Shown here in pieces: positions 2-63,865 of a DNA stretch of 64,000 nt. How positions within the stretch are numbered: the first letter of the stretch is position 1; the number at the start of each line of letters is the position of its first letter. Below the pieces are notes generated by a model. That model was not told the DNA's origin and ran no database searches. It saw nothing but the letters and a program-made list of their open reading frames with translations. The DNA is from a virus, in IMG/VR virus record IMGVR_UViG_3300032516_000007, positions 1 through 64,000 of that record; one strand, given 5' to 3'. The position numbers were made by a program, and so were the translations under genes.

Positions 2-1375
2 GCTCTCTGGGATCGCCTGGAGAAGGTGAAGGATTTGATCGAGGAAGCCAAGTCGCTTCCCGATTCGAAGGAGACGATCAAACAGGCCGAGAAGCTGATG
101 GTTAAGCTGGGAGAGGTGGAGGACCCCGAGCCCGAGGAGGAGCAGGGTCAGGAGCCCCAGAAGGAGCAGCGCAAGGGTGAGGCAGGGGAGGAAGATGAGG
201 AGGGGGATGAGGAAGAGGGAGTAGGGGGAGAGGGCGGGGACGAGGACGAGGAGGGGGAAACTGGTTCTGGAACCAGTGGGGATGGGGACGAGGAGGGGGA
301 GGAGGGTGAGCGGGAGGAGGGTGAGCCCAAGCGCACTTCGAAGCGTCCTACCAATGCCGACTTCGAGAATGTCAGCGAAGAGAGCATGAAGAAGGACGAG
401 CAGATCAGCTCACGCCACAACATGATTCGAACGGCGGCACGGGCAGAGTTTTCTTCTGAGGATCGATACCTCATCTACACGACCGAAGGTGACATGATCG
501 AGCGTATCACCAGCGGTGACAAGTTCGCGGCTCTCCAGTTCCTTCGGGAGAGCAGGGCGATGGTCAACGTGCTTCAGAAGAAGATGCGTCTCAATTTGCT
601 CAGCATCGCTCAGGCGAAGTGGGAGCCTGACAAGCGGCGAGGCAAACTCAACCCCAAGGCAATCTTTCGGGTTCCGCTGGGGACGAGCAAGAGAGTCTTC
701 CGGCAAAGGGTGGAGGCTCCTGGGTTCGATACGCGATGTTCTCTGTGGGTGGATCATTCGGGGAGCATGGCGGGTTACAAGATCGATCTTGCTGCCAAGG
801 CAGCCATGTTGTTCGGAGAGGTTCTGAACGAGTTGGGCATCCCGTTCGAGATTTGTGGGTACAGCACCCGTGATTACAGGACGGGGCAAACTCGATACGA
901 GAAAGCCACCTCAGAAGATCAGAAGATTTACTCGAGGTGGGGAGATCTGTGGGTGGGAATCTACAAGGCATTCGATGAGGATTGGAGACTGGTGAGACAT
1001 CGCTGCCATCAGATGTCTAGGAACCAGCGGGCCAATACCTACGATGGGGAGAGCATCAGGTTGGCGGCGGCACGGCTCAATCAGTACGAGGAGCGGCGTA
1101 GGATACTCTTTGTGTTCAACGATGGCTGCCCTTGTCCTAACGTGGGTTGCAAGATCGAGGAACACACTCGTTACTGCAAAGAGATGGCGAAAGAGGTAGA
1201 GAAGATCGTTGAGCTGTTCGCTGTCGGTATCTGCTCTCCGCAGGTCAAGGACTTCTACTCTAACAACGTGAATATCAACGCTGTGGAGGACTTGCCCAAG
1301 GTGATGCTGACTCAGCTCGACGCCATGCTTCGTGGTGGTAAGAACTTGATCCAGGGTAAGAAGAAGGCTTCATGA
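2..1375 (+). CDS. CobT-like vWA-domain protein (5' truncated by window)
   Basis: MIDAS motif VDHSGS, FEICGYST, NTYDGESI, LFVFNDGCP as in CobT C-terminal vWA domains; long acidic linker; frame open from window start. Confidence 0.8.
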   Translation, partial: ALWDRLEKVKDLIEEAKSLPDSKETIKQAEKLMVKLGEVEDPEPEEEQGQEPQKEQRKGEAGEEDEEGDEEEGVGGEGGDEDEEGETGSGTSGDGDEEGEEGEREEGEPKRTSKRPTNADFENVSEESMKKDEQISSRHNMIRTAARAEFSSEDRYLIYTTEGDMIERITSGDKFAALQFLRESRAMVNVLQKKMRLNLLSIAQAKWEPDKRRGKLNPKAIFRVPLGTSKRVFRQRVEAPGFDTRCSLWVDHSGSMAGYKIDLAAKAAMLFGEVLNELGIPFEICGYSTRDYRTGQTRYEKATSEDQKIYSRWGDLWVGIYKAFDEDWRLVRHRCHQMSRNQRANTYDGESIRLAAARLNQYEERRRILFVFNDGCPCPNVGCKIEEHTRYCKEMAKEVEKIVELFAVGICSPQVKDFYSNNVNINAVEDLPKVMLTQLDAMLRGGKNLIQGKKKAS

Positions 1376-1385
1376 AACGAGGTGC

Positions 1386-1934
1386 ATGGTGCTCTCGACG
1401 GCTGCCAGGATGGTCCAGTGGTTTACTCGGCGTACCGTGCGAGAGTGTCCCGGTTTGGATGCTGCGGAGGTCCAGGGTGAGATGTGGGTCGCCGCAGTAG
1501 AGGCGATGAAGTTCTGGAAACAGGATGGTGGAGCTGCATTTTCCACCATCCTGTTTCGGCGTCTCACGTGGTCAAAGGGGCACTTTCGAAGACGTTGGGT
1601 TCAAGACCACAGGATGAGGATAGCTCACTTCGAAGAGATGGTAGAGCAACCTGATCCGGGTTTTGAGGACCGATGGAAACGACTCGTTGGGAGGCTGAAG
1701 GAGGATGAGCAACAGGTTCTAGAACTGATGGTGAGCCCATCGCCTGTGTTCCTCCGCTATGTTCATCAGTGTTGGCATGAGCGGAGATCAAGGTGGCCGG
1801 GTAACAAGATCAGCTACACGGTGCAACAGGTTCACTACGCTCGCTTCCTTGGCCTATCAACGGTCAAGGTTGGCCGCACCATTCGTCACATTCAGCGGCT
1901 AACTCAGGAAGTGTTCAATGACAACGAAAGGTAA
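1386..1934 (+). CDS. Phage sigma-70-like factor
   Basis: Region-2-like EVQGEMWVAAVEAMKFWKQDGGAAFSTIL; region-4-like LKEDEQQVLEL...ARFLGLSTVKV. Confidence 0.6.
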   Translation: MVLSTAARMVQWFTRRTVRECPGLDAAEVQGEMWVAAVEAMKFWKQDGGAAFSTILFRRLTWSKGHFRRRWVQDHRMRIAHFEEMVEQPDPGFEDRWKRLVGRLKEDEQQVLELMVSPSPVFLRYVHQCWHERRSRWPGNKISYTVQQVHYARFLGLSTVKVGRTIRHIQRLTQEVFNDNER

Positions 1935-4010: not shown

Positions 4011-4234
4011 AGCGTACATCTGATCTGAGTGCAGTCAGGAGGATGCTGATCCGAGCCAAGATCGAATACTCTGAGGAGGAGGAACTCCATTGTGATCGGG
4101 ACAGTCGGGACAGCCCTCACAATGGCAAGCCGGTCATCTGTCTTGATGTGGAGCGGGGTTACAGTGGATTCCATGTGGCGTTCGTCTTTCTGAAGGAGAC
4201 GGGAGAACTGTTGGACCTTGGAGCCTATGAATGA
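4007..4234 (+). CDS. Hypothetical protein
   Basis: ATGA overlaps. Confidence 0.55.
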   Translation: MKRTSDLSAVRRMLIRAKIEYSEEEELHCDRDSRDSPHNGKPVICLDVERGYSGFHVAFVFLKETGELLDLGAYE

Positions 4235-4635
4235 AAACTCCTGTCAAAAGAACGCCCGTCATCAGGACCCCGGTTCAGAGGCCCATCACTGTTGGTTCTA
4301 GAATCAAGCTAAAGGTGGGTGACAAGCAGCAGCTCAAGTGCTTGTTGGTGGGAAAGACGGGTAGGGTCTCAGAGATGTACCAGGATGGCACTTGCTACGT
4401 AATCCTGGATTGTGGTCACATGTGCGATGTGCCCCTGGCATCCATCGAGAAGAGCAACTTCAACAAATGTGTCAATTGCCATACATTGACGCATCGGTCA
4501 GAGCTGAAGATTCCATCGTTCTGGAATGGTAGTGGGGGTCTTTGCTCAGAGTGTTGGAAGGCTCTCAAGATTGACAAATACGAGAGGAAGGTAGATGAGG
4601 GATCAATTAGAGGTAAACGCAAATCTAGTTCGTGA
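4231..4635 (+). CDS. Hypothetical protein, SH3/KOW-like plus Zn finger, N-terminal (K/R)TPV x3
   Basis: VGSRIKL...GKTGRV; CxxC...CxxC. Confidence 0.6.
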   Translation: MKTPVKRTPVIRTPVQRPITVGSRIKLKVGDKQQLKCLLVGKTGRVSEMYQDGTCYVILDCGHMCDVPLASIEKSNFNKCVNCHTLTHRSELKIPSFWNGSGGLCSECWKALKIDKYERKVDEGSIRGKRKSSS

Positions 4636-6354: not shown

Positions 6355-7023
6355 ATGGCAAAGGTAGTGAAGGTCGAGGGGTTCAGCAGCAAGGAGCAGA
6401 AGATTCTCAATGCGCTTTCCAACGGGGAGCAACACAACATTCGGGAGCTGAAGAAGCTCTTCTGGGAGGCTGCCAAGGCACACTGTGCCGAGATCTACGA
6501 GAAGGGATGGGGCGAGCATGAGGTCAATGGGCAGGCCCAGAGTTACGTGCGAAACAGCGTGCGTCGCCTGATCCGTGACGGCTGGGTTGAGGGGCCACAC
6601 ATGAACGAGAACCTTCCCAGGGGCACCTACAAGCTCACCCGCTCCGGTCGTGATCGGGTTGCCAAGGGTGTGTCGATCACGCCCTCTCTCAAGGAGAGAG
6701 ACGCTCGTCGGGAGGGGCGCAAGGCCAACACGGCTGCCAAGAAGGCCAAGAAGGCTCCCGAGGCCAAGAAGGAGAAGAAGGTCAAGGTGAAGGCAGCTCC
6801 CAAGGCCAAGAAGGCTCCCAAGGCCAAGAAGGCTTCCAAGACAGCCGCCCCCAAGAAGGCCAAGGCCAAGGTGAAGGCCAAGCCCGCGAATGGGGCTCAG
6901 GCGAAGGCTCAGGCAGCCAAGGCGAAGGTTTCGAAGGAGGCAGCCAGGGAGAAGGCTCAGGATGCAGCTCGCCGAGCTGCTGAGGAGCCGAAGTCAGAAA
7001 CGTCCACGCCCACCGCGAACTGA
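6355..7023 (+). CDS. Winged-helix DNA-binding protein with histone H1-like Lys/Ala/Pro tail
   Basis: VRNSVRRLIRDGWVE...GTYKLT winged-helix pattern; repeated KAKKAP tail; strong GGAGG RBS. Confidence 0.7.
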   Translation: MAKVVKVEGFSSKEQKILNALSNGEQHNIRELKKLFWEAAKAHCAEIYEKGWGEHEVNGQAQSYVRNSVRRLIRDGWVEGPHMNENLPRGTYKLTRSGRDRVAKGVSITPSLKERDARREGRKANTAAKKAKKAPEAKKEKKVKVKAAPKAKKAPKAKKASKTAAPKKAKAKVKAKPANGAQAKAQAAKAKVSKEAAREKAQDAARRAAEEPKSETSTPTAN

Positions 7024-7034: not shown

Positions 7035-7343
7035 ATGAAAAAAGAAGATAAGGAAAAGGTTGACGCTTTGACGGTTCGTTACCAGGCGAGGCTGGAGAAG
7101 CGTGTGGCTGAGGGGCTCGGTCTCCCTGGTGATGGGGGGAGGCAGGGTCGGCTTCCGGTGGGCATCACGGAGGAGAACCGGGAAGCCTACGTCGCTCTTC
7201 GCGATCAGCTCAGGCAGCTCAAGGATCTGCGGAAGAACTCGGTGGTCAAGCTGCGTGAGATCATCGATGGCATGGAGGCTCTGAAGGGGGCCAAGGCCAA
7301 GCCCGGGAAGAAGGCAGGGGCCAAGAAGAAGAAGGCATCCTGA
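7035..7343 (+). CDS. Small basic coiled-coil protein
   Basis: AAGGAG RBS; Lys-rich C-terminus. Confidence 0.65.
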   Translation: MKKEDKEKVDALTVRYQARLEKRVAEGLGLPGDGGRQGRLPVGITEENREAYVALRDQLRQLKDLRKNSVVKLREIIDGMEALKGAKAKPGKKAGAKKKKAS

Positions 7344-7356
7344 TTCTAGAATCAGG
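7339..7356. repeat. Perfect 18-bp palindrome CCTGATTCTAGAATCAGG (copy of window-wide motif)
   Basis: Read directly; overlaps the TGA stop of 7035..7343. Confidence 0.9.
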
Positions 7357-7375
7357 GTAGATCAAGTTTCAAGAT

Positions 7376-7413
7376 AGGGGCAGCCCTGGGAAACCGGGGT
7401 TGCCCCTTTTTTT
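7376..7413 (+). terminator. Rho-independent terminator
   Basis: AGGGGCAGCCCTGG-GAAA-CCGGGGTTGCCCCT followed by T tract. Confidence 0.9.
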
Positions 7414-10250: not shown

Positions 10251-10838
10251 ATGCCCAACAATTTCACTGGTTTAGAGGTGAATGTCACAATAGACGGGAT
10301 CAGCTATGAGGCAAGCCTTGAGGAAGACATCACAATTGACGGTCAGGACCTGGATGCAGAGTTCCTGACTCAGGCTCGCAAGTTCGCTTGGTGGGCTATG
10401 GTGTCAGAGCTGGCCAAGGATTTGATGAATCGTCGTAAGTACGATCTGGATCAACTATATGCTCGCCAAGATCACAGGGTTCGCATGGAAGCATCTTGCC
10501 CACCCTCTCCCGCCAAACCCGTCAAGCTCACTGAGAAGATGGTTGAGAACAGCGTGATCACTTCTCCTGAGTACAAAACTGCCTACGAATCTTACCTCGA
10601 TACCAAGAAGTATTACGGTATGCTTTCGGCTGGTCGAGAGGCATTTGTTCAAAGGAAGGAGATGTTGATTAGCTTAGGAGCCAATTATCGGGCTGAAGGA
10701 AATGCAGATCCAGTTCTTCTCCAAGAGAAGGCCAAGATCAAAGCGTCAGAGTTGGCTAGGCGTCGAGTTGTTGCATCAGTGACTAACCAACCCCCTCGTG
10801 ATTCTAGAAATACACGAACTCCAGTCCGTAAACCGTAA
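10251..10838 (+). CDS. UvsY-like recombination mediator
   Basis: Helical protein (LDAEFLTQARKFAWW, LTEKMVE, AFVQRKEML) immediately before SSB and RecA. Confidence 0.5.
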   Translation: MPNNFTGLEVNVTIDGISYEASLEEDITIDGQDLDAEFLTQARKFAWWAMVSELAKDLMNRRKYDLDQLYARQDHRVRMEASCPPSPAKPVKLTEKMVENSVITSPEYKTAYESYLDTKKYYGMLSAGREAFVQRKEMLISLGANYRAEGNADPVLLQEKAKIKASELARRRVVASVTNQPPRDSRNTRTPVRKP

Positions 10839-12223: not shown

Positions 12224-13357
12224 ATGGCCAGGACCGCAGTCAAACGTAAGTCATCTACCCAGGCTGACGAAGATCAACTGGTTCATCTTGTCGTCAAGAA
12301 GATGGAGAACCAGTTTGGTTCCAGATCAGCTCTCATTCCTGATTCTGGAACCATTCTCTGCCAGATTGATCACTGGGTCAGCACACGCAACTTTCTCATC
12401 GATAGTGCCATTGCCGGTGGGCTTCCCATGCCCCGTCCCATCATTCCCTTTGGAAGGCTCACTGAGATTGCTGGGCTCAATGGAACAGGGAAGACAACGC
12501 TTCTGGGTCAGATCATCGCAGAGACACAGGCCACAGGTGGCATTGCTGCGGTCATTGACACAGAGCAGTCCATTGATCTTTCTTACTTCGAGAAGCTGGG
12601 AGTCAATCTAAGTCGGTTGATTGTGATCCAGTGTGAAACCATCGAAGATGTGTTCACACGTCTTGTTTCTCTCGTTGAAGCGATCAAGGAGTTCAGCACA
12701 GACCGTCTCATTTGCATGGGATGGGATTCACTAGGTGGAACCCCGACCAAGGCTCAGGCTACTGCTGAAGCTGATGATCATTTCTACGCTGAGGCAGCGA
12801 AGGTGGTGGGTAAGAACCTCCAACGTCTCATCCAGATGATCTCCCGAGAGCGTATTGCTCTTGTCTTCAACAACCACCTCTATCGGAAGATGAACGTGAA
12901 GTACGGGGACCCCTGGGAGACCTACGGAGGGGAGAAGGTCAAGTTCTACTCGACGTTGAGGATTCGCCTTGAGCGAGTGGGAGCTATCGGTGAGGGTATT
13001 AAGGACAAGGATGAGGAAAAAGTGATCATTGGGCATCGGGTCAAGGTGAAGGTGATCAAGAACAAGATGGCTCCAATGCTGAGATCTGTTGTGGTTCCTT
13101 GCATTGGGAATCATGGTTTCAGTCTCAACTACTCTGTTTTCGAGCATTCGATTCAGCAGGGGTTGATCACGGGAAAGACGTGGCGATCTTGGTCCACCTC
13201 ATCGGAAGAGGTGAAGTTCCTGGGTTGGAAAGGGTTTCAGGAGAAGGTCATGGTACATCCTGAGTATCCTGATCTGGTCCAGCAGGTGGTGTCAAATCAC
13301 TACCATAAGAATTCCGTTGCTGGGGAAGTAGAGACGGAAGTGGAGGATGAAGAGTGA
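12224..13357 (+). CDS. recA: RecA-like recombinase
   Basis: Walker A GLNGTGKT, IDTEQ, WDS, YGGEKVKFYSTLRI, KVIKNK. Confidence 0.93.
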   Translation: MARTAVKRKSSTQADEDQLVHLVVKKMENQFGSRSALIPDSGTILCQIDHWVSTRNFLIDSAIAGGLPMPRPIIPFGRLTEIAGLNGTGKTTLLGQIIAETQATGGIAAVIDTEQSIDLSYFEKLGVNLSRLIVIQCETIEDVFTRLVSLVEAIKEFSTDRLICMGWDSLGGTPTKAQATAEADDHFYAEAAKVVGKNLQRLIQMISRERIALVFNNHLYRKMNVKYGDPWETYGGEKVKFYSTLRIRLERVGAIGEGIKDKDEEKVIIGHRVKVKVIKNKMAPMLRSVVVPCIGNHGFSLNYSVFEHSIQQGLITGKTWRSWSTSSEEVKFLGWKGFQEKVMVHPEYPDLVQQVVSNHYHKNSVAGEVETEVEDEE

Positions 13358-13572: not shown

Positions 13573-14648
13573 AGGTACTTCTCTTTAGTGATCTTCATGG
13601 CCACGCATTCAAACCCTACGCTCAGCTTCTACCCAACGGGATGAACTCCAGGCTTCGGGATGCTGTGGAAACACTGGATCAGATCAGAGCAGTGGCCAAA
13701 GAGGAGAAGGTTGATCTGATCCTCTTTGGTGGAGACATGTTCCACACTCGAGGTACTATTCACGTGCAAACATTCAATGCCATCTTCGAAGGAATCTCGA
13801 AGATGTCACTGGGAAGAATGGTGGGGTTGCTTGTGGGCAACCACGATCAGACCTCTCGGCGGGGGGATGTCCACAGTGTTTATGCTTTTGGAGCTGTGGC
13901 GACGGTGATGGACAAGCCAGGATGGGTCAAGTTCACAACCAAGGGTGAAGACCTTCACATTCTGGCTCTGCCTCACACTCCAGAAAAGGATGACATCCTT
14001 GTAGAGATCAATGAAGCACTCAAAAACCCTCCAGGTGATCCTGCAATACTTCTGGGACACTTTGGTGTTGATGGGGCTAGCATAGGATCAAATCTGGTTT
14101 TGATCGACAAGCATTGTCTGTCCATGAAGGACATCTCTCAATTCCAGCAAGCGTTTTCTCAGATCTTCCTAGGACACTATCACCATCCTCAGAAGCTCGC
14201 GAACAACGTGCGCTTCATTGGAGCCCCCCACCACCACAACTGGGGTGATGTGGGTTCACTTCGAGGGTGTTGGCTGTGGGTACCAGGGGAGACCCCTCGA
14301 TTCAAAGCATTGCCTGGTCCCACCTTCAAGAAATTCGATCTGCAAACCATTCGAGAGGGTGTTGGGCTCAAGGAGAGCGACATTAGGGGATGCTACATCA
14401 GGATCATGTGTGAGGAGTTTCCCACAGATCTCGAGCAGAGTGAGCTGCGGACCAACGTGATGGGCACCGGGGCCAGAGTAGTGGAGTTTGTGGTTCTAGA
14501 ACAGTCACAGGTCGCATCAGGACCGGTACCCATATTCCAGGTGGGAATGGACTTCGAGGAGATGCTAGAGTCCTACATTCACAGCCAAACTGATCCCCAG
14601 CTTGATGATGAGATGTTGTTCATGCTTGGGAAGGAATTGTTGGGATGA
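13569..14648 (+). CDS. sbcD: SbcD/Mre11-like metallophosphoesterase nuclease
   Basis: SDLH, GDMFH, GNHD, GHYH motifs; adjacent to SbcC. Confidence 0.9.
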   Translation: MKVLLFSDLHGHAFKPYAQLLPNGMNSRLRDAVETLDQIRAVAKEEKVDLILFGGDMFHTRGTIHVQTFNAIFEGISKMSLGRMVGLLVGNHDQTSRRGDVHSVYAFGAVATVMDKPGWVKFTTKGEDLHILALPHTPEKDDILVEINEALKNPPGDPAILLGHFGVDGASIGSNLVLIDKHCLSMKDISQFQQAFSQIFLGHYHHPQKLANNVRFIGAPHHHNWGDVGSLRGCWLWVPGETPRFKALPGPTFKKFDLQTIREGVGLKESDIRGCYIRIMCEEFPTDLEQSELRTNVMGTGARVVEFVVLEQSQVASGPVPIFQVGMDFEEMLESYIHSQTDPQLDDEMLFMLGKELLG

Positions 14649-18313: not shown

Positions 18314-18925
18314 ATGCCGAGAACAATTCGGCGAAAGAAGAGCCCTCTGCGTCAAACGGTACAGCAAAGATCACTTCCTCGAGTGGAAGTGATCGACTAC
18401 TTTCCACCTGAGCATGATCCTGAACGTGAGTTGATCAGGGACAAGCTTGGGCAGCCAAGGAGGAAGAAGATGGGCGAGGCAAAAGAGATTGTGGGGAAGC
18501 CCTATGACGATCACTTCCCGGCTCCTGTGGGTGTTGCTGCGGGGTCAGTCATCCAGCGCATGAGTCTGATGGTTGATGACATCGATAGGGCTATCCAAGT
18601 CAAAGAGCACGATCTGTCAGTGGAAGGCAAGAATAACTTCGCTGAGAACCATTACAAGATCGGAATCCTCAAGGGAGCTGACAGTCTCATCCGTCGGGCG
18701 CGTGCGATGCTTCAGGACTATGGAACTGATCTCGATCAGGATTTCGACCCAAGCGAGGACATCAAGGCTGCCTCGGGTGAAGACCTGGAGAATGGTGTGG
18801 TCATCCCTCTCAACAGTGACAAGAAGGAATATGACCCCATTCCCATCATGGAAAATGTTGAAGAGGAAGATGAGGAGGATGGGAAGGATGACAAGGGTGG
18901 GGATGGGGGCAGCTTCAAGTTCTAG
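18314..18925 (+). CDS. Hypothetical protein
   Basis: ORF with basic N-terminus and acidic C-terminus. Confidence 0.55.
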   Translation: MPRTIRRKKSPLRQTVQQRSLPRVEVIDYFPPEHDPERELIRDKLGQPRRKKMGEAKEIVGKPYDDHFPAPVGVAAGSVIQRMSLMVDDIDRAIQVKEHDLSVEGKNNFAENHYKIGILKGADSLIRRARAMLQDYGTDLDQDFDPSEDIKAASGEDLENGVVIPLNSDKKEYDPIPIMENVEEEDEEDGKDDKGGDGGSFKF

Positions 18926-18938
18926 AAAGGAGATCACC

Positions 18939-19415
18939 ATGCCACTCTGTCTCAATGCCGACCCAGCAATGGATTTGAGGAAAAGGATCGTGTGGGACCC
19001 AGTGAAGTCAGAGGATGTTCTCGAAGCTCAACATCGCGTTGATGTCCTTCGCAACCAAGGGTTTACTGTGGTTGAGGGACCATTCCTTCCAGGGGAGATG
19101 GTTCTAGAACCACCGAAGCGAGCCGCTGACCTCTTCTTGCTGCGTATTCTGGATGATAGTGGGGACACACGCATTGTGTGGAGCCGCAAGAGCGAACAAG
19201 AAACCAAAGAGGCTCGCCAGAAGTTTGAAGAGCACATCAAGAAAGGATACAGAGCCTACGTGTGCCGGTTGGATGGTTCCAAGGGGCGGCGTATCGAGGA
19301 CTTCGATTCTCTGCTTGAAGAGATCGTGCTGACTCAAGGTAGGATGATTGGGGGGATGCAATATCCTAATCGACCAGCCGAAGCTGTGATGGTTCCCCCG
19401 ACTGCGCCTGGTTAG
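18939..19415 (+). CDS. Uncharacterised protein with internal domain duplication, ending PPTAPG
   Basis: AAGGAG RBS; RIVW motif twice. Confidence 0.65.
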   Translation: MPLCLNADPAMDLRKRIVWDPVKSEDVLEAQHRVDVLRNQGFTVVEGPFLPGEMVLEPPKRAADLFLLRILDDSGDTRIVWSRKSEQETKEARQKFEEHIKKGYRAYVCRLDGSKGRRIEDFDSLLEEIVLTQGRMIGGMQYPNRPAEAVMVPPTAPG

Positions 19416-41907: not shown

Positions 41908-41944
41908 TTGACAGTTGCTTATCTACCTGTGATTCTAGAACCAA
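41908..41944 (+). promoter_or_regulatory. Candidate promoter whose -10 overlaps the palindrome
   Basis: TTGACA-17bp-GATTCT with extended TG; TGATTCTAGAACCA at 41930-41943. Confidence 0.6.
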
Positions 41945-49393: not shown

Positions 49394-51400
49394 ATGTTTC
49401 TCACGTCTGGACAACTATATGATCTGCTGAGCAAGGCCAAGAAGAAGGCCACTCAGACAGGTTCTCGTGGGGGACGTTACTACGTCAGCACTGAGGGCTC
49501 CAAGATCTACACTGGGGAGCCCTCAGTTCCTGCCCCCTCAACTCGACCTCTCCCAACGCTTCATCATTTCGTCTCCATGGCTCCTCACTCTTCTCAGAAG
49601 ACACAGAGCCCAGTGAGTGTTGAGGCAGAGGTTGAGGTCACGAAGTTGCCCATGCGCCAGCGGGTGGTTCCGGCTGAGCAAAGATTTAGACCAAAGGCTA
49701 AGATCACTACTTCGAGTCGTGCATCTGTTCAGGAGGCCATGAAGAGATGGCCTGCCTACGTTTGTCGATCTTGTCGAGCAGTGATTCTTCCAACTTTTGC
49801 AAAGGATACGAAGCGGAATCAGGTTGATAAGATCGAATCAGAGGTTGATGAGAAGGGGGTGCCTAAGTCATGGCACGTGGTGACAGAGGAAGAGGGGGTC
49901 AAGGAGCGTTATCGTGCCGCTTCGAAGGCTGAAGCCACCCAGCTATCAGAGGATCTCAGGCAGCACTTTAGGGGAGAAGAACCCTGGCAGAGAAGGGATG
50001 ATCTGATCGCTGTTCATCAGACCAAGATCGAGGGAGAACAAAAGCATTCCACGCTTCTAGAACCAGGAGTTGTCCAACCCGAGATGGTTGGTCAGAAGCT
50101 TTGTCCTGATTGCTTTGGGAAGCATGAGGTGATCTCTCGGGAAGTGACGGGTCGGACTAAGATCAAGCATACAGCAGAGACAAGGCGGGTTGCTCATCAG
50201 AAGGAGAAGGAGCAGAAGCAAAAGGAAAGATCAATTCAGATTGCCCTGAAGAAGTTCCCTGGGAAGCGTACACAAGCTGAGAAGCAACTTGTGGATGAGC
50301 ATGAGGCAATCCAACGGACTCGTCAGCGAGCGGAGGACGAGAAGCGGAAGAAGGAAGATAGTTGGGGAAAGAAGATGGCGGGGGAAGTCTGGATCGAAGG
50401 TCAGGAGCAGGCTGCTTTGATGAAGCTTCGTCATCAGTATTGTGACAAGCTGATCCGTGAGGGAAAGGATCGATCTGAGGCTGGCCGCGAGGCAGCCAAC
50501 CTCACGAATGAAGAGCTGAGCAAGTTTCAGCAAGAGCAGGTTCGGGCTCATGGAAAACGTCGTGAGGATACGATCAAGGAGGTCGAAGCTGAGAGTGGTA
50601 GCCGTCATGTGATTCCAGTGTTCTATGGTCATGAGATTGAAGAGCACATGGAGCGACGGAGACATGAAGCTCCAGGGGGTGAGGAGCGGGGGGTGTACAG
50701 AGAGACAGTTAACCCTGTTCAGGCCAAAATAGCTGAACTTCTTCGTACCGCTCGAATGAGGGAGCGGATAGAGGAGAAGGAATCCCCAAAGGGGAGGAAG
50801 AGGAAGATCAAGAAGGGGCTATGTCTCTTTCTGAACAAGAGCATCTATCAGAGTGCCAAATCCCCTGAGGAAGCTGCTCAGCATAGGCAGTGGGCCAAGG
50901 AAGACTTTAGTGCTCCTTCTCCAGAAATTGAGAAGCCCAGGGAGCCTAAGGTTGAGAAGCCCAAGGAGCCTGAGAGAGACATTCATATGGAGGCGGCTCA
51001 CCACCTCACCCATGTGTTTCATCACGTAGATCAAGCTCGTCACTTTCAGGGTCATGAATTATCTTTTCATAAGCACTGGGAAGCAGCTCGTCAGTTGATC
51101 AAGCAGGGTGCTGATCCAAAATCTGAGCATTTTGATAAGGTTGGTAGGCACTACTATGGTAAGTACGTGGGCCTGAGACTTCGGGGGACCCGCAGGCTAG
51201 CAAGTCATGGTGAGAGGTATCCGGGCCGCCTGCCACTCCCAGGGTCTGATGGCTCTGGGGGTCAGAGGTTGCTGGGTAGGCTATCCTCCATGGCTGATCA
51301 TCTGTACCACACACCATCAGCAGTGAGGAGACTGAGAAACCGAATTGCAAACTCTTCTGGTACTCCCAATTTCAGAAGAGAACGTGGTGCTTGGGAGTAG
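49394..51400 (+). CDS. Putative internal head protein
   Basis: N-terminal LLSKA then GSRGGRYY; CRSC/CPDC; LNKSI. Confidence 0.6.
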   Translation: MFLTSGQLYDLLSKAKKKATQTGSRGGRYYVSTEGSKIYTGEPSVPAPSTRPLPTLHHFVSMAPHSSQKTQSPVSVEAEVEVTKLPMRQRVVPAEQRFRPKAKITTSSRASVQEAMKRWPAYVCRSCRAVILPTFAKDTKRNQVDKIESEVDEKGVPKSWHVVTEEEGVKERYRAASKAEATQLSEDLRQHFRGEEPWQRRDDLIAVHQTKIEGEQKHSTLLEPGVVQPEMVGQKLCPDCFGKHEVISREVTGRTKIKHTAETRRVAHQKEKEQKQKERSIQIALKKFPGKRTQAEKQLVDEHEAIQRTRQRAEDEKRKKEDSWGKKMAGEVWIEGQEQAALMKLRHQYCDKLIREGKDRSEAGREAANLTNEELSKFQQEQVRAHGKRREDTIKEVEAESGSRHVIPVFYGHEIEEHMERRRHEAPGGEERGVYRETVNPVQAKIAELLRTARMRERIEEKESPKGRKRKIKKGLCLFLNKSIYQSAKSPEEAAQHRQWAKEDFSAPSPEIEKPREPKVEKPKEPERDIHMEAAHHLTHVFHHVDQARHFQGHELSFHKHWEAARQLIKQGADPKSEHFDKVGRHYYGKYVGLRLRGTRRLASHGERYPGRLPLPGSDGSGGQRLLGRLSSMADHLYHTPSAVRRLRNRIANSSGTPNFRRERGAWE

Positions 51401-51422: not shown

Positions 51423-51893
51423 ATGGCAAACAATCCATACGCTGGTGCAGTTCCCCTCAATCTTCGTCCTGAGGAGACAAGTGAGGTGGTGGCCAAGTCC
51501 ACCAGTTATCGTCCTGGGGAGGTCCATCCGATGACCTATCGCCATCCTGCCCAGAATCCATCTTTGGGTCGAGAGGATGGGAACACTCCTCTTCGTCGCT
51601 ACCCAAATGGTCTGCTGGATGTGGGCTATGTGGCGAGCTTCATCATTGAAGTGATCCACAAAGCTGAGTTGGGTGGCAATCTGACCAACTTCGAGAAGGC
51701 ACTGCTGACCCTCATCCTGCCTGGTCATTTCCAGTTGATCGATGCTCAGATTGCTGCATCCTTCGCTCACCTGACTGATGAGGAGAAGCTTCTTCTGTCA
51801 GTCAAGGTCATGCGGCACTTCAATGAGGAGCTGAATTACAACGCTGGAGCGGGAGGCGGTAGTGTGCCCTTCCGTCATGTCACAAAAAGTTAG
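51423..51893 (+). CDS. Head-module protein
   Basis: AAGGAG RBS; VAKS, IHKA, ends VTKS. Confidence 0.6.
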   Translation: MANNPYAGAVPLNLRPEETSEVVAKSTSYRPGEVHPMTYRHPAQNPSLGREDGNTPLRRYPNGLLDVGYVASFIIEVIHKAELGGNLTNFEKALLTLILPGHFQLIDAQIAASFAHLTDEEKLLLSVKVMRHFNEELNYNAGAGGGSVPFRHVTKS

Positions 51894-52107
51894 GCTTCAG
51901 ATCCCTGACGATGTTCCTCTTGAGGAAGTCGTCAAGGCTCTAGAGTCTGCCGCACGGGGGCTTCGCCAGGAACAGGAGGCGAAGCCCCTGTCAGGTATTG
52001 AAGATCGGAATCCAGCATCCAAGCACATGATGGAGTTCATCGATAGTTCCTACTTGACCATGGTGGATAGCTTGGCAAAGGAGATTGGGAAGGTTCTAGA
52101 ATCATGA
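51877..52107 (+). CDS. Small head-module protein
   Basis: VVKAL. Confidence 0.55.
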   Translation: MSQKVRLQIPDDVPLEEVVKALESAARGLRQEQEAKPLSGIEDRNPASKHMMEFIDSSYLTMVDSLAKEIGKVLES

Positions 52108-52277
52108 TCAGGAAGTTGCCATTGCGTCCCATCATGAAGTCCAAGCTCACCTCTGATGGTGAGCGGGTACTTCAGATTCTCCAGAGGGAATATCAGATGG
52201 AGCGTGAGGCGGCGGTTCGTTTGATGAGAGATGGCGGGGCCATGTTGGCCCTGGCTATTGTGACTCGGAGTCGATGA
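52104..52277 (+). CDS. 57-aa protein (not in ORF track)
   Basis: MIRKLPLRPIMKSKL...; ATGA overlaps at both ends. Confidence 0.55.
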   Translation: MIRKLPLRPIMKSKLTSDGERVLQILQREYQMEREAAVRLMRDGGAMLALAIVTRSR

Positions 52278-53648: not shown

Positions 53649-53665
53649 GATGTTGGTTCTAGAAC

Positions 53666-54574
53666 ATGCCGATTCTGACGAGGCAGCAAGTTGAGAAGCT
53701 TGCTGAGATCATTGACCAGCACACCACCTGGTTCGTCTGGCGAGCTTTCGGTTCCCAGTACGTCAAGAAAGAAGATCTAGACAAGCTGAAGGCTAGTGGA
53801 CTCCTGCCTATGGATGTGCAGGTGTCCACGATCAAGAATGCCTACGTTTTGGGTCGGCTGGAATCTCTGCTCAAGGAAAACGATTTCAGGAAGTTGACCT
53901 GGGTTCAGCTCCAAGAGGCAGCCAAGGGTCGCTTTACCTCTGTTGACAAGTTCCAGATCGAAGCGGCTGAGATGAGTGCCTTTACGAAGTTTCGTGGATT
54001 GGCTGACGACATCAAGAGTCGTCTCTACGATCGTTTGGCTCAGGCGACGAACAGCACTGTGACTGAAGCTCATGTGCGAGGGACGATCAAGGACATTGTT
54101 AAGGTTGGGGTTGAACTCAGCCAATCCTTCCAGAAGGTGGCCAGAGAGTTGGTGGAGGAGCTGAAGGAACCAACTCGAAATTGGACTCGTGTGGCTGCCA
54201 CGGAGCTTCACACAGCGTGGCAACGGGGTGTGGTCAACACGATCATTCAGAAGGTAGATCTGTACGAGGATTCTGAGGGCATTGATAGCAACGTCTTTGT
54301 TGATCATGACGATGATGCCTGTGAGGACTGCAAGAGGATCTACAACGATCCCAAGACTGGTCATCCCAAGATCATGAAGTTGAGAGACCTTCTCGAGAAC
54401 GAGGGATCCAACTATCAACGGCCATGGCGTCAGAATGCTAAGCCGGTTGTCCCTCCTCTGCATCCCCACTGCTATGGGCGTGTGATCTATGTTCCCCCAG
54501 GTTGGGGGTTCAAGGATGATGGTACGTTCACTCTGATCGATCCCAAGGAAGCTTACCCGGAGCTGAACGAATGA
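53666..54574 (+). CDS. MuF-like head morphogenesis protein
   Basis: RNWTRVAATE, DACEDC, PPLHPHC. Confidence 0.8.
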   Translation: MPILTRQQVEKLAEIIDQHTTWFVWRAFGSQYVKKEDLDKLKASGLLPMDVQVSTIKNAYVLGRLESLLKENDFRKLTWVQLQEAAKGRFTSVDKFQIEAAEMSAFTKFRGLADDIKSRLYDRLAQATNSTVTEAHVRGTIKDIVKVGVELSQSFQKVARELVEELKEPTRNWTRVAATELHTAWQRGVVNTIIQKVDLYEDSEGIDSNVFVDHDDDACEDCKRIYNDPKTGHPKIMKLRDLLENEGSNYQRPWRQNAKPVVPPLHPHCYGRVIYVPPGWGFKDDGTFTLIDPKEAYPELNE

Positions 54575-58693: not shown

Positions 58694-59449
58694 ATGAAAC
58701 GTCCAATGAAAGAATCGGCTTACGATTTAACTGATCTTGTTGATCAGGATAAATCTGGTGATATTCACTATTCTACTGATGGTACTAGAACCATGAATCA
58801 TGAAGGGATGATTGATTGGGATCAAAGTACCGAAGCGATGGACCTTGGTGACAGTCATCCAGAGGACAAAGTTGTTTTCGATTACGATGGCAATGTGATT
58901 CATGATCCTGAAATGGAGGGTCAGGTAGATGGTGGAGACGAGGAGCCGGAAGCTTCACCAGAAGAGGAGCTTCCTGGTGATTCTAGAACCACGGGAGAAC
59001 CCACCAAGGAGCCTGCCATGGGAACTGAATCTCCAAATCCCCAGCCTACTCAACCGTTAATGGGGATAGCCGCTCAGGGGGGCCAAGAGGAGCCTCAGGA
59101 AGCTCAGGGGGAGCCCCAAGGGGGCCAGGAGACAACTCAGGGGGCTCAGGAAGAAGAGCAGACCCAGGAGGGTCAGGAGCCATCCCAGGAGGGTTCTGAG
59201 GAGCAGGGAGACCTTCTCTCAGTGGATGACCCTGCCCAGGCCCAGCAGCTCCTCCAGAACGCCGATAAGATGGACCGGCCTCACATGCTTCAGGTGGCTA
59301 AACTCATCTGGGGGGATGACTACGAGTTTGAGGACTGGATGACGGACGATTACGTGCGAGCAGACCTGAAGGGGTCACTCGAGGATGTTCTCGAGAGCCA
59401 TGAAGAGGGAGTTGCTCCTGTCGAAGGGGAAGACGAGGAAGAGGAGTAG
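58694..59449 (+). CDS. Highly acidic protein (scaffold-like?)
   Basis: D/E/Q-rich low complexity. Confidence 0.55.
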   Translation: MKRPMKESAYDLTDLVDQDKSGDIHYSTDGTRTMNHEGMIDWDQSTEAMDLGDSHPEDKVVFDYDGNVIHDPEMEGQVDGGDEEPEASPEEELPGDSRTTGEPTKEPAMGTESPNPQPTQPLMGIAAQGGQEEPQEAQGEPQGGQETTQGAQEEEQTQEGQEPSQEGSEEQGDLLSVDDPAQAQQLLQNADKMDRPHMLQVAKLIWGDDYEFEDWMTDDYVRADLKGSLEDVLESHEEGVAPVEGEDEEEE

Positions 59450-59456
59450 ACCGAAG

Positions 59457-62400
59457 ATGATGCTTCCTCTGTGGATCGATCTTGTCAAGGCACGCAAAGG
59501 TGAGCGTGTTGGGGGAAAGTATATCCACAGATGGTGGAACTCTGGTCAGAACAAGTGGAACTACAAGTATTCTGATAAGCCTCACCCCCAGCATGGAATT
59601 CCCTATGTGGCTACTTCCAGCCACACGATTGAGGTTCACCCATCAGTGAAATCTGAAGCCTCACCAGAAGAGGCGTTCCACCAGTCGGCCAGGGCAGAGC
59701 TGAAGCATGGGGAGGAGCAGAAGGCCACATTCAAAAACCCCAGTGGGGAGGTTCTGTTCACGGTCCACGTCAAGCCTGGGCTCGACAATCCTATCCATGT
59801 TGCCCCTCCTGGAACCCAATCAGCTCGGGGGGCTCAGAGGATGGGCAGTTTGCGCCGATTCGAGAATTGGTTTCGTCGGCGTATGACCACACAGACAGTT
59901 TATGATGCTCATGGTGATCCTTGGTTTGATGTGCGGCTTCGTGGTCAGAGTGGTGAGTATCATCGTGAGGGTAAGATTCTGAATCCCAGCGATCGTTTGT
60001 CAGTTCGCTACTACCCTGACAGTCCCTACAATCCCTATCCGAAAGAAGAGACAGCCTGGGTTCCAGGCCCATTTCGTCAGGGCAGCATGAATGAGTGGGT
60101 CAGAGGGGAACATCGAAAACAAAGAGTATCTGGGCAGCGTGTGAAACCTGCCAAAGTTTTTTCAAAGGATGCAAAGCGGCCAGCCACCACGATGCTGGAG
60201 CAGGGGACCATCACTTGGAAGCAGGTTTTTCAACCTAAGAAGGGAAGGGGTGGAAAGTGGTGGAAACGAGTTGCGACGAATCTTAGGAGTAAAGATCAAT
60301 TCTATTCTCGCATTATTCAGGAGCACTTTGGGTTGATTGTGAATCAGGCTATTCGTCAGTTGAAGATCTACTACATCACTGACAAAGATGGTCATCCAGA
60401 TCGAAGAGCAGTGGCTCAGCTACTTGGATACTATGGGGGACCTGGACGCAAGATGAAGGTTCAGGTTGATTCGGATTCTCCTACTCATCGGGCTGTTGAG
60501 AGAGCAGTCAATTCTTATGATCCTGAGAAGGGATGGAGATTCAATACCTACTTGGGTCACTGTGTGTGGTGGGAGCAATTCAAAGAGACCAAGAGGATTC
60601 TGGATCAGATAACTGCCCATAGAAAGCTGATCTCTAGAACTTCAGACAATGCTGGAAACATTCTGGATGAGATTAGTCTGACCCAGGCTGCTCCCGGTCA
60701 TGAAGCGATCATTGGGGCTGGGGTTCATTACCAGACAGCCGAGGAGCACGTATCCCAAGATCAGGAAGTAGTTCAGAATTGGTTGAATCGGCAAGAGGAT
60801 AAGTTGTCACGCTACGTTGTGGCTGAAGATGATCCTGATCGTCAGATGATAGCGTTCAATGCACTTCAGCATCTTGATGCAGTCAAGAACATCCAGCAGG
60901 CCATGGCTTTTGTGGTTCACTATCAGTCCTCGGGTGGTGATGGGTTCGCAGAGCCATTAGAGTCTCCTGAGGATCGCTCAGTGGAGATTGCAACGCCTAG
61001 GCTGACCAAGCAGGAGAAGCTTAACTGGGTGAATCTTGTCACTGAGCACCCAACTCTCACGAATCGAGAGAGGCATGCCCTCCTGGTGCTGGCTCCTACT
61101 GGTGATCTAACTGACATGGTTCCGTTCGATGAAGTTGCATCGAAACTAAACAAAGATCATCCAAAGGAGTTCCCGAGGGAGCCTAGGGTGAATGAGGTGG
61201 TGGACCTTTTCTTGGATGCCTACACGAAACTGGTTGGCTCACCGGAGTTTGAAGCCATGCAGAGGAAGCTGTTCGCTGTTGCCAAGGCTATTGGTATCCT
61301 GAGCAAGGGGATCAAACGGGGAGGGAAGGCTCAGGACTATGAGTACCTTCGCAGAGAGGGCCTGCCTGGTGGCTACAAGTATTTCTACAAGGAGCCTGGA
61401 ACCGAAAACATCATTCGGGGCACAAATGCTCCAGTGGATCATCCTCACCACGATGCGTCCCTTGGGGTGTCTCAAAAGCATCCTCGTGAGCCTGACCCCG
61501 TGAAAGACCCTCAGTATTTTGATCCTCGTAATGGCAGAAAACTCCACCGAGCTGCCCCTGAACATGCTGAGTGGAACAAGAACTACGGTCTGGAGCGTCC
61601 CCTTTCTGCGTGGGTAGCAAAGTGGCCCAAGGCAGATCCGAACAATCCTGATCCCGAATACGCCTACTACCATTCAGATCAGGAAGGTAGAGGGGATCTG
61701 AAGTTCCACGTTAGCAATCGTCATTTCGCTGTGCAGTTGCCCAAGGTGAGGAAACTCTATAGTACCTTGATGAAGAGTAAGGAATTCTCAAGTCGAGTTC
61801 TGGGATTGATGATCTCTCTTCTGGATCAGGTGTATATGCGTCCTGGTAAGAAACAGCATGAGGAGAAGACTGGACATGTTGGGCTGGTTACATTGAAAGT
61901 ATCCAACGTTGTGATGAAGGGTAATGTAGCTACTTTCTCTTATGTGGGTAAGAGGGGAGTGAACATTGTTCACAGTATCACTCTAGATCATCCAACTGCA
62001 AAGATCATGAAGGATCTGATCAAAGCTCCCGGTAAATCACCCAAGGACTATTTGTTCTCTGTTCCGGTCCAAGTTGGTAGGAGAGTCAAATTCCGGGATG
62101 TTGGTTACAACAAGTTGTCCAGGACCCTTGATGAGGCGGTTGGTGTCACTCCCAAGCAATTCAGGATCTATCATGGGACAGAGGCGTTCTCGAGGACGTT
62201 TGAGCAGCTCCTCGAGGGGGTCAAGGGAAGAGTAACCCCCAAGGTTCTAGAAGCACTCACTGAGCAGTCGGCCCTCGAGGTGGCAAGGATGCTGGATCAT
62301 TATGTTGGCAAGGGGGCAGAACAGAAACTTCACAGTCAGACGGCTTTGAAGAGCTATATTGATCCTGTAGTGGTGAGGTCTCTTTATCTCAATGCCCTTA

Positions 62401-62873
62401 CTCCAGATGTGAGCAAGGCATTCAAGCTTCAGGGAACTACAGAATTCCAGGGTCTCCCCATCAGCATTGAAAACAAGAAAGGATCAATTCGTAGGTGGTA
62501 TGATCCCCACGAGAAGAGGAATGGGGTTACTCCCATGCACTTTGATTATGGGTACATTCGTAGGACAGAGGGCATGGATGGAGATCATGTGGATGTCTAT
62601 ATTGGCCCCCACCCTGAGTCCACAATAGCGTTTGTGGTGCATCAGATGAAGGGTCCAGATTTCTTCGAGTTTGATGAAGATAAGGTGATGTTGGGATTCT
62701 CCTCTGCTGATGAGGCCCGATTGGCATACCTCAAACAGTACGACAAGCCTGGGTTCTTTGGTGGGATCACTGCTATTCCGATGGATCAATTCAAGGAGAA
62801 GCTGGCTCAAACCAAAGATCATCCGATGATGCTGAAATCGTTTGTGTGGTTTGGGAATGAGGTGCTTCAGTGA
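59457..62873 (+). CDS. Polyprotein: sigma-70-like factor, topoisomerase IB, inorganic pyrophosphatase
   Basis: Sigma2 AVNSYDPEKGWRFNTY, sigma4 LTNRER...FDEVA; TopIB MRPG, GKRG, KQFR, LDH, KSYIDP; PPase IEN..GS.R, YGYI, DGDHVDV, DEDKVMLG. Confidence 0.82.
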   Translation: MMLPLWIDLVKARKGERVGGKYIHRWWNSGQNKWNYKYSDKPHPQHGIPYVATSSHTIEVHPSVKSEASPEEAFHQSARAELKHGEEQKATFKNPSGEVLFTVHVKPGLDNPIHVAPPGTQSARGAQRMGSLRRFENWFRRRMTTQTVYDAHGDPWFDVRLRGQSGEYHREGKILNPSDRLSVRYYPDSPYNPYPKEETAWVPGPFRQGSMNEWVRGEHRKQRVSGQRVKPAKVFSKDAKRPATTMLEQGTITWKQVFQPKKGRGGKWWKRVATNLRSKDQFYSRIIQEHFGLIVNQAIRQLKIYYITDKDGHPDRRAVAQLLGYYGGPGRKMKVQVDSDSPTHRAVERAVNSYDPEKGWRFNTYLGHCVWWEQFKETKRILDQITAHRKLISRTSDNAGNILDEISLTQAAPGHEAIIGAGVHYQTAEEHVSQDQEVVQNWLNRQEDKLSRYVVAEDDPDRQMIAFNALQHLDAVKNIQQAMAFVVHYQSSGGDGFAEPLESPEDRSVEIATPRLTKQEKLNWVNLVTEHPTLTNRERHALLVLAPTGDLTDMVPFDEVASKLNKDHPKEFPREPRVNEVVDLFLDAYTKLVGSPEFEAMQRKLFAVAKAIGILSKGIKRGGKAQDYEYLRREGLPGGYKYFYKEPGTENIIRGTNAPVDHPHHDASLGVSQKHPREPDPVKDPQYFDPRNGRKLHRAAPEHAEWNKNYGLERPLSAWVAKWPKADPNNPDPEYAYYHSDQEGRGDLKFHVSNRHFAVQLPKVRKLYSTLMKSKEFSSRVLGLMISLLDQVYMRPGKKQHEEKTGHVGLVTLKVSNVVMKGNVATFSYVGKRGVNIVHSITLDHPTAKIMKDLIKAPGKSPKDYLFSVPVQVGRRVKFRDVGYNKLSRTLDEAVGVTPKQFRIYHGTEAFSRTFEQLLEGVKGRVTPKVLEALTEQSALEVARMLDHYVGKGAEQKLHSQTALKSYIDPVVVRSLYLNALTPDVSKAFKLQGTTEFQGLPISIENKKGSIRRWYDPHEKRNGVTPMHFDYGYIRRTEGMDGDHVDVYIGPHPESTIAFVVHQMKGPDFFEFDEDKVMLGFSSADEARLAYLKQYDKPGFFGGITAIPMDQFKEKLAQTKDHPMMLKSFVWFGNEVLQ

Positions 62874-63865
62874 TCACCACAACTTCAGTTGGAGAGAAGT
62901 TTCAGAAGCCAATCCGAAGATTTGGCAGGTACGTTGCTCTGACTCCAAGTCATCTACATCGGAAGTTGAAGAATGGCCACTACTCAATCATCTCTGCTGG
63001 TGCGAATAGATCTGATCCCAAAGAGAAAGATTTGCCCTGGGATCATCCCATGTTCAAGGAGCGACACGAGAAGCTGAGGCAAGATTTGATCCATCATGGG
63101 CTTGATCACACAGAAGGGATGGGTCACTACGAGGGGAAAGAGCATTCGTTTGTTGTGTACCATGGTCCAGGTGGGAGGACTCCACCGGATGTTTCTGGAA
63201 CCAAATCCTTTATGGTGCATCACGAACATCCCAGTGAGCATGCAACAGTCAGGGACCTTGGGAAAAAGTACAATCAGCAGAGTGTGATTCATTCCTTGGG
63301 TGGTAAGCATGAACTTCATTTTGTGACAGGTGATCATGCAGGGACTCACCACAAGGGAGTGGGCCACGAGATCAAGCCCCATGCCGAAGACTACTATACT
63401 GAGATCAAACACAAGGAACCTCGCTCAACTAAGTTCTCTCTGAACTTAAATTGGGGTACCCATCATCCAGAGCATGAGGCAGTGCTGAAGGCTATGGTTC
63501 CAGAATCAGGAGAGGAAGGGGATGGGGAAGAAGAAGGGAGTTCTCACATCCACCACGTGACTGCTGATCCTCCCGATCAGTTCCCTCATGAGATAGAGTT
63601 TAACCGATGGTTGCACTCTCATCCAATCCATGAGAGTGATCATGAGTGGAATTCAGTCAAGACAATGGGGGGCTTCAAAGATCTCCACATCCCAAGTCCC
63701 GAAGGGGAAGATGATGAGCAATCGTCTGCCGAGTCTGATCGTGCTGGATTCCAAGGTGGTGAACCTGATCAAGGGTCTGATGGGGAGCCCGAGTCCGCAG
63801 AGCCTGAGGACTACTCCTACCTCGACTCTTACCAGCATGGAGATCGAAAGCCTGCTGAAAAGTGA
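62870..63865 (+). CDS. SAM lyase (T3 SAMase-like) domain protein with acidic tail
   Basis: SIISA, RH..L..DL, GHY...EHSF, LGKKYNQQSVI. Confidence 0.55.
   Translation: MITTTSVGEKFQKPIRRFGRYVALTPSHLHRKLKNGHYSIISAGANRSDPKEKDLPWDHPMFKERHEKLRQDLIHHGLDHTEGMGHYEGKEHSFVVYHGPGGRTPPDVSGTKSFMVHHEHPSEHATVRDLGKKYNQQSVIHSLGGKHELHFVTGDHAGTHHKGVGHEIKPHAEDYYTEIKHKEPRSTKFSLNLNWGTHHPEHEAVLKAMVPESGEEGDGEEEGSSHIHHVTADPPDQFPHEIEFNRWLHSHPIHESDHEWNSVKTMGGFKDLHIPSPEGEDDEQSSAESDRAGFQGGEPDQGSDGEPESAEPEDYSYLDSYQHGDRKPAEK

Follow-up and report, generated by a model that had tools for sequence, protein, structure and literature searches.

What is the role of a short palindrome that recurs throughout the genome of an uncultured virus, in genes as well as between them? 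The question is raised by the first 64 kb (the window, 64,000 nucleotides) of the 115,041-bp linear IMG/VR virus contig IMGVR_UViG_3300032516_000007, with an estimated completeness of 68% (roughly one third of the genome is missing). The element is the 14-bp dyad TGRTTCTAGAAYCA with its 8-bp core TTCTAGAA; sites past position 64,000 (69858, 81975, 85223, 91748 and 112144) are given in whole-contig coordinates. A preliminary description of the window had proposed a binding site for a genome-organising, partition, packaging or master-repressor protein. Judged from sequence comparisons, TGRTTCTAGAAYCA is putatively bound by a dimeric protein that recognises a specific DNA sequence, is probably encoded by the phage and would act as a global transcription regulator, a reading to which we assign a probability of roughly 0.55.

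No other 8-mer of the 115-kb contig comes near the core in enrichment, and among palindromic 8-mers it ranks first, with 36 copies against 1.8 expected under an order-3 Markov model (z=25). In the window it is found 23 times, compared with 0.97 on average, and never more than 4, in dinucleotide shuffles; all 23 starts listed previously are exact, and the earlier estimate of about one expected copy is upheld by the shuffles. The perfect 14-mer is present in 10 copies in the window, the number reported before (4293, 7341, 19099, 30914, 31454, 31888, 31954, 37719, 41930 and 58978), and in 12 copies in the contig. Eight window copies have a single mismatch (262, 12340, 16408, 32818, 34677, 52091, 58780 and 63495), and copies with at most one mismatch are expected only 0.06 times in the window. 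The previous list of single-mismatch copies correctly included 262, 12340, 32818 and 63495, overlooked the other four, and contained one copy, 46901, that has two mismatches. In the whole contig, 14-mers with 0, 1 and 2 mismatches number 12, 14 and 20 against 0, 0.05 and 1.35 expected, giving about 45 copies of the palindrome, 26 of them with at most one mismatch. Information content drops to background immediately beyond 14 bp, implying a self-contained dyad; membership in a longer repeat or a mobile element is thereby ruled out. A few copies in a repeat-rich island described below extend to 18-24-bp palindromes. The R/Y variants display no strand preference (6 A..C and 3 G..T), and CTAG overall is only mildly depleted (214 vs 265). 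Spacing along the contig is indistinguishable from random (Poisson-like), no regular spacing of copies was found across the contig, and the longest motif-free gap, 19.1-30.9 kb, is the terminase region. An RNA structure could also be ruled out, as the stem would have just 4-5 A/U-rich pairs and an Rfam scan of the window gave no match.

Codon usage does not account for the excess. Plus-strand genes hold 21 copies of TTCTAGAA, against 1.38 on average and at most 5 in 200 within-gene synonymous-codon shuffles, 0.88 after shuffling of codon order and 4.8 under a codon-level Markov (dicodon) model. Loss of the excess under a dicodon-preserving shuffle had been set beforehand as the refuting outcome, and the excess survives both the synonymous and the dicodon controls. 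Thus, the enrichment reflects selection on the DNA itself, exerted in part by the choice among synonymous codons; Leu-Glu is spelled CTAGAA at 20 of 199 occurrences, with 4.5 expected. Such selection for operator-like sites within coding sequence is strong and unusual. A compositional or coding artefact, in which the palindrome would be a by-product of V/I-L-E or G-S-R peptides or of codon-pair bias, could be suspected from the fact that every coding copy lies in one of only two stop-free frames (16 xTT-CTA-GAA and 5 TCT-AGA). However, the synonymous, codon-order and dicodon expectations remain far below the observed number, and the best copies are non-coding. Taken with the dinucleotide shuffles, these controls rule the artefact out, leaving it practically no credence.

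The closer a copy matches TGRTTCTAGAAYCA, the likelier it is to be non-coding: 9 of the 12 perfect, 5 of the 14 one-mismatch and 3 of the 20 two-mismatch copies in the contig fall outside called genes, and our own gene calls make the contig 92% coding. Furthermore, about eight copies stand at a fixed register, 3 bp 5' of a -10 hexamer, which places the dyad at about -29 to -16 with its centre near -22.5. The arrangement motif-N3-TAnnnT is seen on the coding strand at 37719 (TATACA), 40294 (TATTCT), 81975 (TATACT), 85223 (TATAAT) and 91748 (TAGACT); it recurs on the minus strand at 31888 (TATAAT), 7341 and 4293 show a weaker form of it, and 69858 has N1 (TAGTTT). Overall, TA is found at offset +3 in 7 of 55 sites, compared with a 3% background. 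A sigma-70-like promoter scan of the plus strand of the 115 kb returned only 5 strong candidates, and the two best intergenic promoters of this type (TTGACA-N17/18-TAnnnT, 69850 and 91741) have the motif within their spacers. Gene junctions of 17-48 nt are filled by the copies at 53654, 112144, 40294 and 81975. The copies at 52091, 53654 and 112144, which fill junctions or abut start codons, cannot be promoter elements. Use of the motif's own TAGAAT as a -10 hexamer was ruled out, since in the most frequent variant the hexamer would face opposite to all genes. The symmetry of the dyad, its sharp edges, its preference for DNA free of constraint and its location over core promoter elements argue for a dimeric DNA-binding regulator. 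The core of the earlier proposal, a site selected across the genome for a sequence-specific DNA-binding protein, is therefore retained on the strength of the dyad, its 14-bp boundary, the non-coding perfect copies and the synonymous selection. Among the functions offered, master repressor or regulator is the best fit, given the copies in promoter spacers, over a -10 and in short junctions, whereas partition and packaging are not supported, as detailed below. The window copies, with strand where one was assigned, are as follows.

4293-4306, perfect 14-mer TGGTTCTAGAATCA, inside or just 5' of the weakly scoring open reading frame (ORF) 4231-4635, with TA at +3 (TAAAGG).
7339-7356, perfect 18-bp palindrome CCTGATTCTAGAATCAGG, as described previously, overlapping the TGA stop of gene 7035-7343, with TAGATC at N3.
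7376-7407, strong terminator hairpin downstream of the 7339-7356 copy.
19099-19112, perfect 14-mer TGGTTCTAGAACCA, inside ORF 18888-19415, where it reads V-L-E-P.
30914-30927, perfect 14-mer in the 18-bp palindrome CTTGATTCTAGAACCAAG, intergenic, flanked by two hairpins, at the left margin of the repeat-rich island.
31454-31467, perfect 14-mer in the 18-bp palindrome CTTGATTCTAGAACCAAG, at the 3' end of ORF 30979-31530.
31888-31901, minus strand, perfect 14-mer TGATTCTAGAATCA, with TATAAT at N3 on that strand; a leftward promoter-like site in the island.
31954-31967, perfect 14-mer, intergenic, in the island.
37719-37732, plus strand, perfect 14-mer with TATACA at N3, 181 nt 5' of the histone-like gene 37913-38119.
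41930-41943, plus strand, perfect 14-mer that overlaps a conserved TTGACA-N17 promoter (41908-41936) at its -10 (GATTCT) and start region; this promoter precedes gene 41978 and the head module.
58978-58991, perfect 14-mer of uncertain coding status (ORF 58694-59449 is not called).
40294-40307, plus strand, core copy CTGTTCTAGAACCC lying between the two hexamers of TTGCAT-N18-TATTCT (40287-40316).
262-275, one-mismatch copy TGGTTCTGGAACCA, coding.
12340-12353, one-mismatch copy inside the RecA-like gene.
16408-16421, one-mismatch copy inside the SbcC-like gene.
32818-32831, one-mismatch copy with extended arms (GCTCT...AGAGC), intergenic, directly 5' of a 21-bp tandem array.
34677-34690, one-mismatch copy, intergenic, just past the operon holding the winged helix-turn-helix gene 34025-34414.
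52091-52104, one-mismatch copy at the junction of 51862-52107 and 52104-52277, its last base being the A of the ATG.
58780-58793, one-mismatch copy TGGTACTAGAACCA.
63495-63508, one-mismatch copy TGGTTCCAGAATCA.
53654-53667, two-mismatch copy filling the 17-nt gap from the stop at 53648 to the ATG at 53666.
1717-1724, core TTCTAGAA, coding (V-L-E).
2070-2077, core TTCTAGAA, coding (G-S-R).
10802-10809, core TTCTAGAA, coding, 44 nt 5' of the SSB gene start.
14494-14501, core TTCTAGAA, coding.
15430-15437, core TTCTAGAA, coding.
18920-18927, core TTCTAGAA, whose TAG is the stop codon of gene 18470-18925.
50055-50062, core TTCTAGAA, coding.
62245-62252, core TTCTAGAA, coding (TopIB/PPase polyprotein).

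To place the motif among related phages, 79 loci related in their large terminase (TerL) were recovered from IMG/VR, and two large relatives, G1 and G4, were compared in full. In G1 (77.5 kb, TerL identity 72%), TTCTAGAA occurs 10 times against 1.7 expected and is again the top palindromic 8-mer, with looser flanks; one copy lies at the place matching 37719, 5' of the histone-like gene. In the 7.6-kb locus L014 (TerL 62%), a 22-bp palindrome encloses a perfect 14-mer. By contrast, G4 (109.6 kb, TerL 65%) has zero TTCTAGAA and no dominant palindrome (max z 4.1), and the idea that each relative has its own palindrome is not supported by this genome. The motif, strong here, weak at 72% TerL identity and absent at 65%, thus offers a natural series for the origin and spread of a regulator and its site network. 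The promoters themselves are more widely kept. Indeed, 5' of the protease gene G1 has TTGACG-N17-TAGGTT and a leader terminator, 5' of the tail gene G4 has TTGACA-N18-TACGCT, a conserved leader segment and a hairpin, and 5' of the head module, at the equivalent of 41930, G1 has TTGACA-N17-AATCCT, all without the palindrome. This conservation implies that the polymerase recognition elements are ancestral and that the dyad is a regulatory layer added in this lineage. A single-protein TerL scan of IMG/VR found no close relative, a metagenome scan yielded only a 3.8-kb near-identical piece, which spans a motif-free stretch, and an IMG/VR scan for the 17-mer gave single hits only.

If TGRTTCTAGAAYCA is the site of such a regulator, the bound dimer would gate RNA polymerase at the motif-bearing core promoters. 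It would repress where the site overlaps the -10, as at 41930, where the position implies occlusion, and it might substitute for an absent -35 at promoters such as 85223, the one hint of activation; its effect may depend on position. Junction and intragenic copies would serve as auxiliary operators or elongation roadblocks, with genome-wide timing or silencing of transcription as the outcome. Alternatively, the palindrome could be a positive promoter element, a '-22 box' through which a late or middle activator replaces the -35 contact, as in the Lpa-dependent late promoters of phage P1. The fixed motif-N3-(-10) register and the P1 precedent favour this, as do the copies that precede structural operons, namely 41930 (head module), 69858 (protease-scaffold-capsid) and 81975, 85223 and 91748 (tail); moreover, at 85223 the phage has the dyad and lacks a -35, whereas G4 has a -35-like TTGCCT there. 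However, no activator should be needed at the two best examples, whose TTGACA is perfect, the motif at 41930 covers the -10 itself, and most copies (coding, in junctions or abutting an ATG) lack a -10 altogether. From the dyad centre to the -10 the distance is 10.5 bp here, compared with ~14 bp in P1 LPhot, and no similarity to Lpa was seen in the sole pairwise comparison, with the product of 34025-34414 (E=14), no Lpa family search having been made. We consider a dedicated activator box unlikely.

Several observations weigh against a global transcription regulator. No copy of TTCTAGAA in G1 shows the N3/-10 register, so the promoter link may be secondary. About 30 intragenic copies have no -10 signal downstream, and an ordinary operator model does not need them. 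The bias toward gene starts is modest (27 of 55 sites within 300 nt, 33% expected, p=0.01), and a 14-bp motif could settle in spacers and junctions merely because these are the unconstrained stretches of a packed genome. Finally, none of the helix-turn-helix (HTH) proteins tested tracks the motif convincingly.

The same intragenic copies bear on an architectural or genome-marking role, in which the sites would nucleate or anchor a phage nucleoid or chromatin protein, or serve partition, or condensation and packaging, and overlap with promoters would be incidental. The Poisson-like spread over genes and intergenic DNA alike, the selection acting on intragenic copies and the G1 copies outside promoter register agree with this possibility, and the phage encodes both a winged-helix protein with an H1-like tail and a histone-like protein. 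Nevertheless, the recognition helix of the H1-tailed protein is kept, and the histone-like gene is present, in G4 with its zero TTCTAGAA, spacing is not regular, and perfect copies stand in a specific register with -10 hexamers. For partition in particular, no match to ParB_N (PF02195) was found in the 115-kb contig (68% complete by estimate), the dyad has 14 bp and not 16, and some 45 Poisson-spaced copies, many of them intragenic, are unlike a parS set; the likeness noted previously (half-site TGTTTC in parS, TGRTTC here, both dyads) is superficial. Packaging is likewise not supported, the largest motif-free gap being the terminase region. In our view an architectural role is a real but rather improbable alternative. 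A bolder version, to which we give slightly less weight still, would make the palindrome a self-marking sequence written into coding DNA too, on which a phage protein nucleates a genome-wide coat or chromatin together with the histone-like and H1-tailed proteins. If this were true, the coat would silence transcription or organise or protect the genome, and the promoter-spacer copies would be just its visible tip.

Returning to a regulator, we asked which phage protein might bind the dyad. Of the four candidates named in the preliminary description, three are disfavoured by their distribution among relatives and one is retained, weakly. The protein of 6355-7023 (winged helix with the H1-like tail) has an almost unchanged putative recognition helix in G4. 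The product of 34025-34414 (previously given as 34019), a winged helix with a coiled coil (phrog_1123), has no homologue in motif-bearing G1, and 21 IMG/VR loci encoding this family, with its invariant RLSELR helix, contain one TTCTAGAA in ~308 kb. The region-4-like HTH protein of 29050-29718 adjoins TerL in many motif-free relatives. The fourth, a 112-aa HTH protein with a long C-terminal helix (21582-21920, plus strand; AlphaFold pLDDT 64), has homologues in the motif-bearing G1 and L014, as well as in L006 and L007 (motif-free over 6.6 and 14 kb), and none in G4. It is the sole named candidate for which the distribution in relatives is compatible with the motif; the correspondence is confounded by relatedness and makes it a weak candidate at best. 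A Foldseek search with its AlphaFold model gave no significant match, with KorA and ArdK chains among the weak, non-significant ones, and searches of ~30 proteins against Pfam, PHROGs and NCBIfam for a binder returned generic, non-significant HTH matches only.

Since a phage-encoded binder could not be assigned, the palindrome might instead be the operator of a recruited host regulator, tying phage expression to host physiology. Phages carrying LexA boxes or CtrA boxes are precedents, the site has the shape of a classical dimeric operator, and related phages with presumably different hosts lack it. On the other hand, known host-regulator boxes in phages are far fewer than the ~45 copies, intragenic ones included, seen here, and the motif fits no host operator consensus known to us. 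A scan of IMG/VR for the exact 14-mer gave single hits only among the matches listed (116 stretches), which also speaks against this reading, and we consider host recruitment improbable. As a host clue, Myxococcales were discarded: TerL relatives at ~44% identity (L233-L238) lie on contigs binned in two Myxococcales metagenome-assembled genomes, and these 70% GC, motif-free bins are uninformative for a phage of 51% GC. One of these assembled genomes has five TerL-relative contigs, which suggests several related phages or mis-binning.

Very little probability attaches to the palindrome as the target of a DNA-modifying or cutting enzyme (a methyltransferase, a nicking or a restriction-like enzyme) or as a recombination hotspot. 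Its core contains TCTAGA, and the A/T variants also GANTC, both of which we take to be typical enzyme sites, and the phage has SbcCD- and RecA-like genes. Yet restriction sites are normally avoided and not enriched about 20-fold, as this one is, and known phage nick sites and Chi sites are asymmetric. Furthermore, N6/N4, C5 and Dam methyltransferase domains (PF01555, PF00145 and PF05869) had no match in the 115 kb, and such an enzyme would leave the -10 register of the best copies unexplained.

Among known systems, the combination of promoter, junction and intragenic copies comes closest to the operator/stoperator network of L5, a cluster A mycobacteriophage. The L5 repressor has more than 20 sites, in promoters and short intergenic spaces, that are proposed to block both initiation and elongation (PMC9283540). 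Each genome thus repeats one short motif over 20 times, at promoters as well as in narrow gaps between genes, but the L5 sites are 13-bp, asymmetric, monomer-bound and oriented with transcription, whereas the predicted sites here are 14-bp dyads, many of them intragenic. Unlike in L5, neither a repressor homologue nor a lysogeny gene was found in the 115 kb. Should the intragenic sites indeed be roadblocks or auxiliary operators, the principle of the stoperator would no longer be confined to actinophages and would extend to a dyad-symmetric, dimer-type site. The late promoters of P1 carry a 9-bp inverted repeat for Lpa, annotated as a '-22 region' (PMC10695390; NC_005856). The likeness is that many promoters (11 in P1) have a short inverted repeat in the interval from the -35 position to the -10, and P1 also has C1 operators dispersed over its ~94-kb genome. 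The Lpa boxes differ from TGRTTCTAGAAYCA in sequence, in length (9 vs 14 bp) and in distance to the -10, they are not reported inside genes, two promoters here have a perfect -35, and an Lpa-like protein was not detected (in the one comparison made). KorA and KorB of RK2/RP4 recognise palindromic 12-13-bp operators repeated around the replicon, at promoters and far from them. However, that is a plasmid system with far fewer sites (7 and 12), and KorB belongs to the ParB family, whose N-terminal domain had no match in the 115 kb. The copies at 69858, 91748 and 7341 also recall the lambda-type Q elements in the PR' spacer, as a site between the -35 and -10 of a strong constitutive late promoter is followed by a leader terminator. 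Lambda-type Q sites are single and asymmetric, and, unlike them, the ~45 copies here mostly lack a promoter; in relatives the leader terminators are kept and the palindrome is missing.

The phage belongs to a large uncultured lineage, with a TerL at most 32% identical to that of any isolate phage. A single 14-bp word that marks most recognisable promoters could give access to its regulatory circuit, serving as pull-down bait, as the basis of a regulon map and as a portable operator for synthetic control.

Some of the promoter-like sites have further features. In 40287-40327, the -10 TATTCT ends 8 nt before the ATG (40325) of gene 40325-40828, with no Shine-Dalgarno between them, which makes the mRNA probably leaderless. 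At 69850-69940, 91741-91845 and 7341-7407, a terminator hairpin follows within 30-60 nt, before the first gene. Hairpins and a leader segment (cctgttgtccRccaggccacagg) after strong promoter-like sites are kept in G1 and G4, which points to control of late operons by attenuation or antitermination, in which the palindrome would play no part.

The previously noted cluster at 30.9-32.8 kb is real and comprises five copies of the palindrome, in a 1.5-2-kb repeat-rich, non-coding island. Between 30390 and 32181 the island also has seven same-strand copies of CATACATACA (often CTCATACATACAAGCC), confined to it and ending in a (CATA)8.5 microsatellite (32148-32181). The syntenic island of G1 (35.1-36.3 kb of G1) likewise has seven copies of the CATACATACA box, and G4 has none. 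These boxes are candidate iterons of an origin, or candidate sites of a second regulator. The region 32082-32923 contains CCCTACCCT-type boxes, three copies of TTGCTTTGCTTTGG (32236-32277) and a 21-bp unit repeated 4.1 times (32838-32923). GC skew falls to zero around 28-32 kb, and the island is a possible origin of replication.

Nearly all genes are on the plus strand, and the recognisable ones include CobT-like, DNA polymerase, SSB, RecA-like, SbcCD-like, large terminase and portal genes and a TopIB/pyrophosphatase polyprotein gene. Megablast against phage isolates gave no DNA-level match, and no tyrosine or serine recombinase (integrase or resolvase) was found in the 115 kb, 68% of the genome by estimate. 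Metagenomes contain a large family of relatives, on contigs of up to ~170 kb, and homologous proteins 90-99% identical to those of this phage exist. The 68-aa protein of 37913-38119, upstream of which a palindrome copy lies, has a weak match to DUF1931 (histone-fold-like) and is kept in both G1 and G4. The 1162-aa ORF 59385-62873 combines a eukaryotic-type topoisomerase IB with a polyvalent-protein pyrophosphatase domain; its residues 342-410 match sigma-70 region 2 weakly but consistently, with E=0.07 for RpoS chains and E=0.002-0.06 for NCBIfam sigma models. This ORF has no match to the Pfam Sigma70_r2 model, and a sigma region 2 domain was not found in the 115 kb. At the 5' end of the large-terminase gene, a 99-100% identical metagenome contig (L232:1183-2038) has ~856 bp in place of 47 bp (23533-23579), and several TerL homologues, with lengths of 750-1000 aa, include intein domains (PF14890). 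Together, these two observations point to an intein or homing element that is variably present in the lineage.

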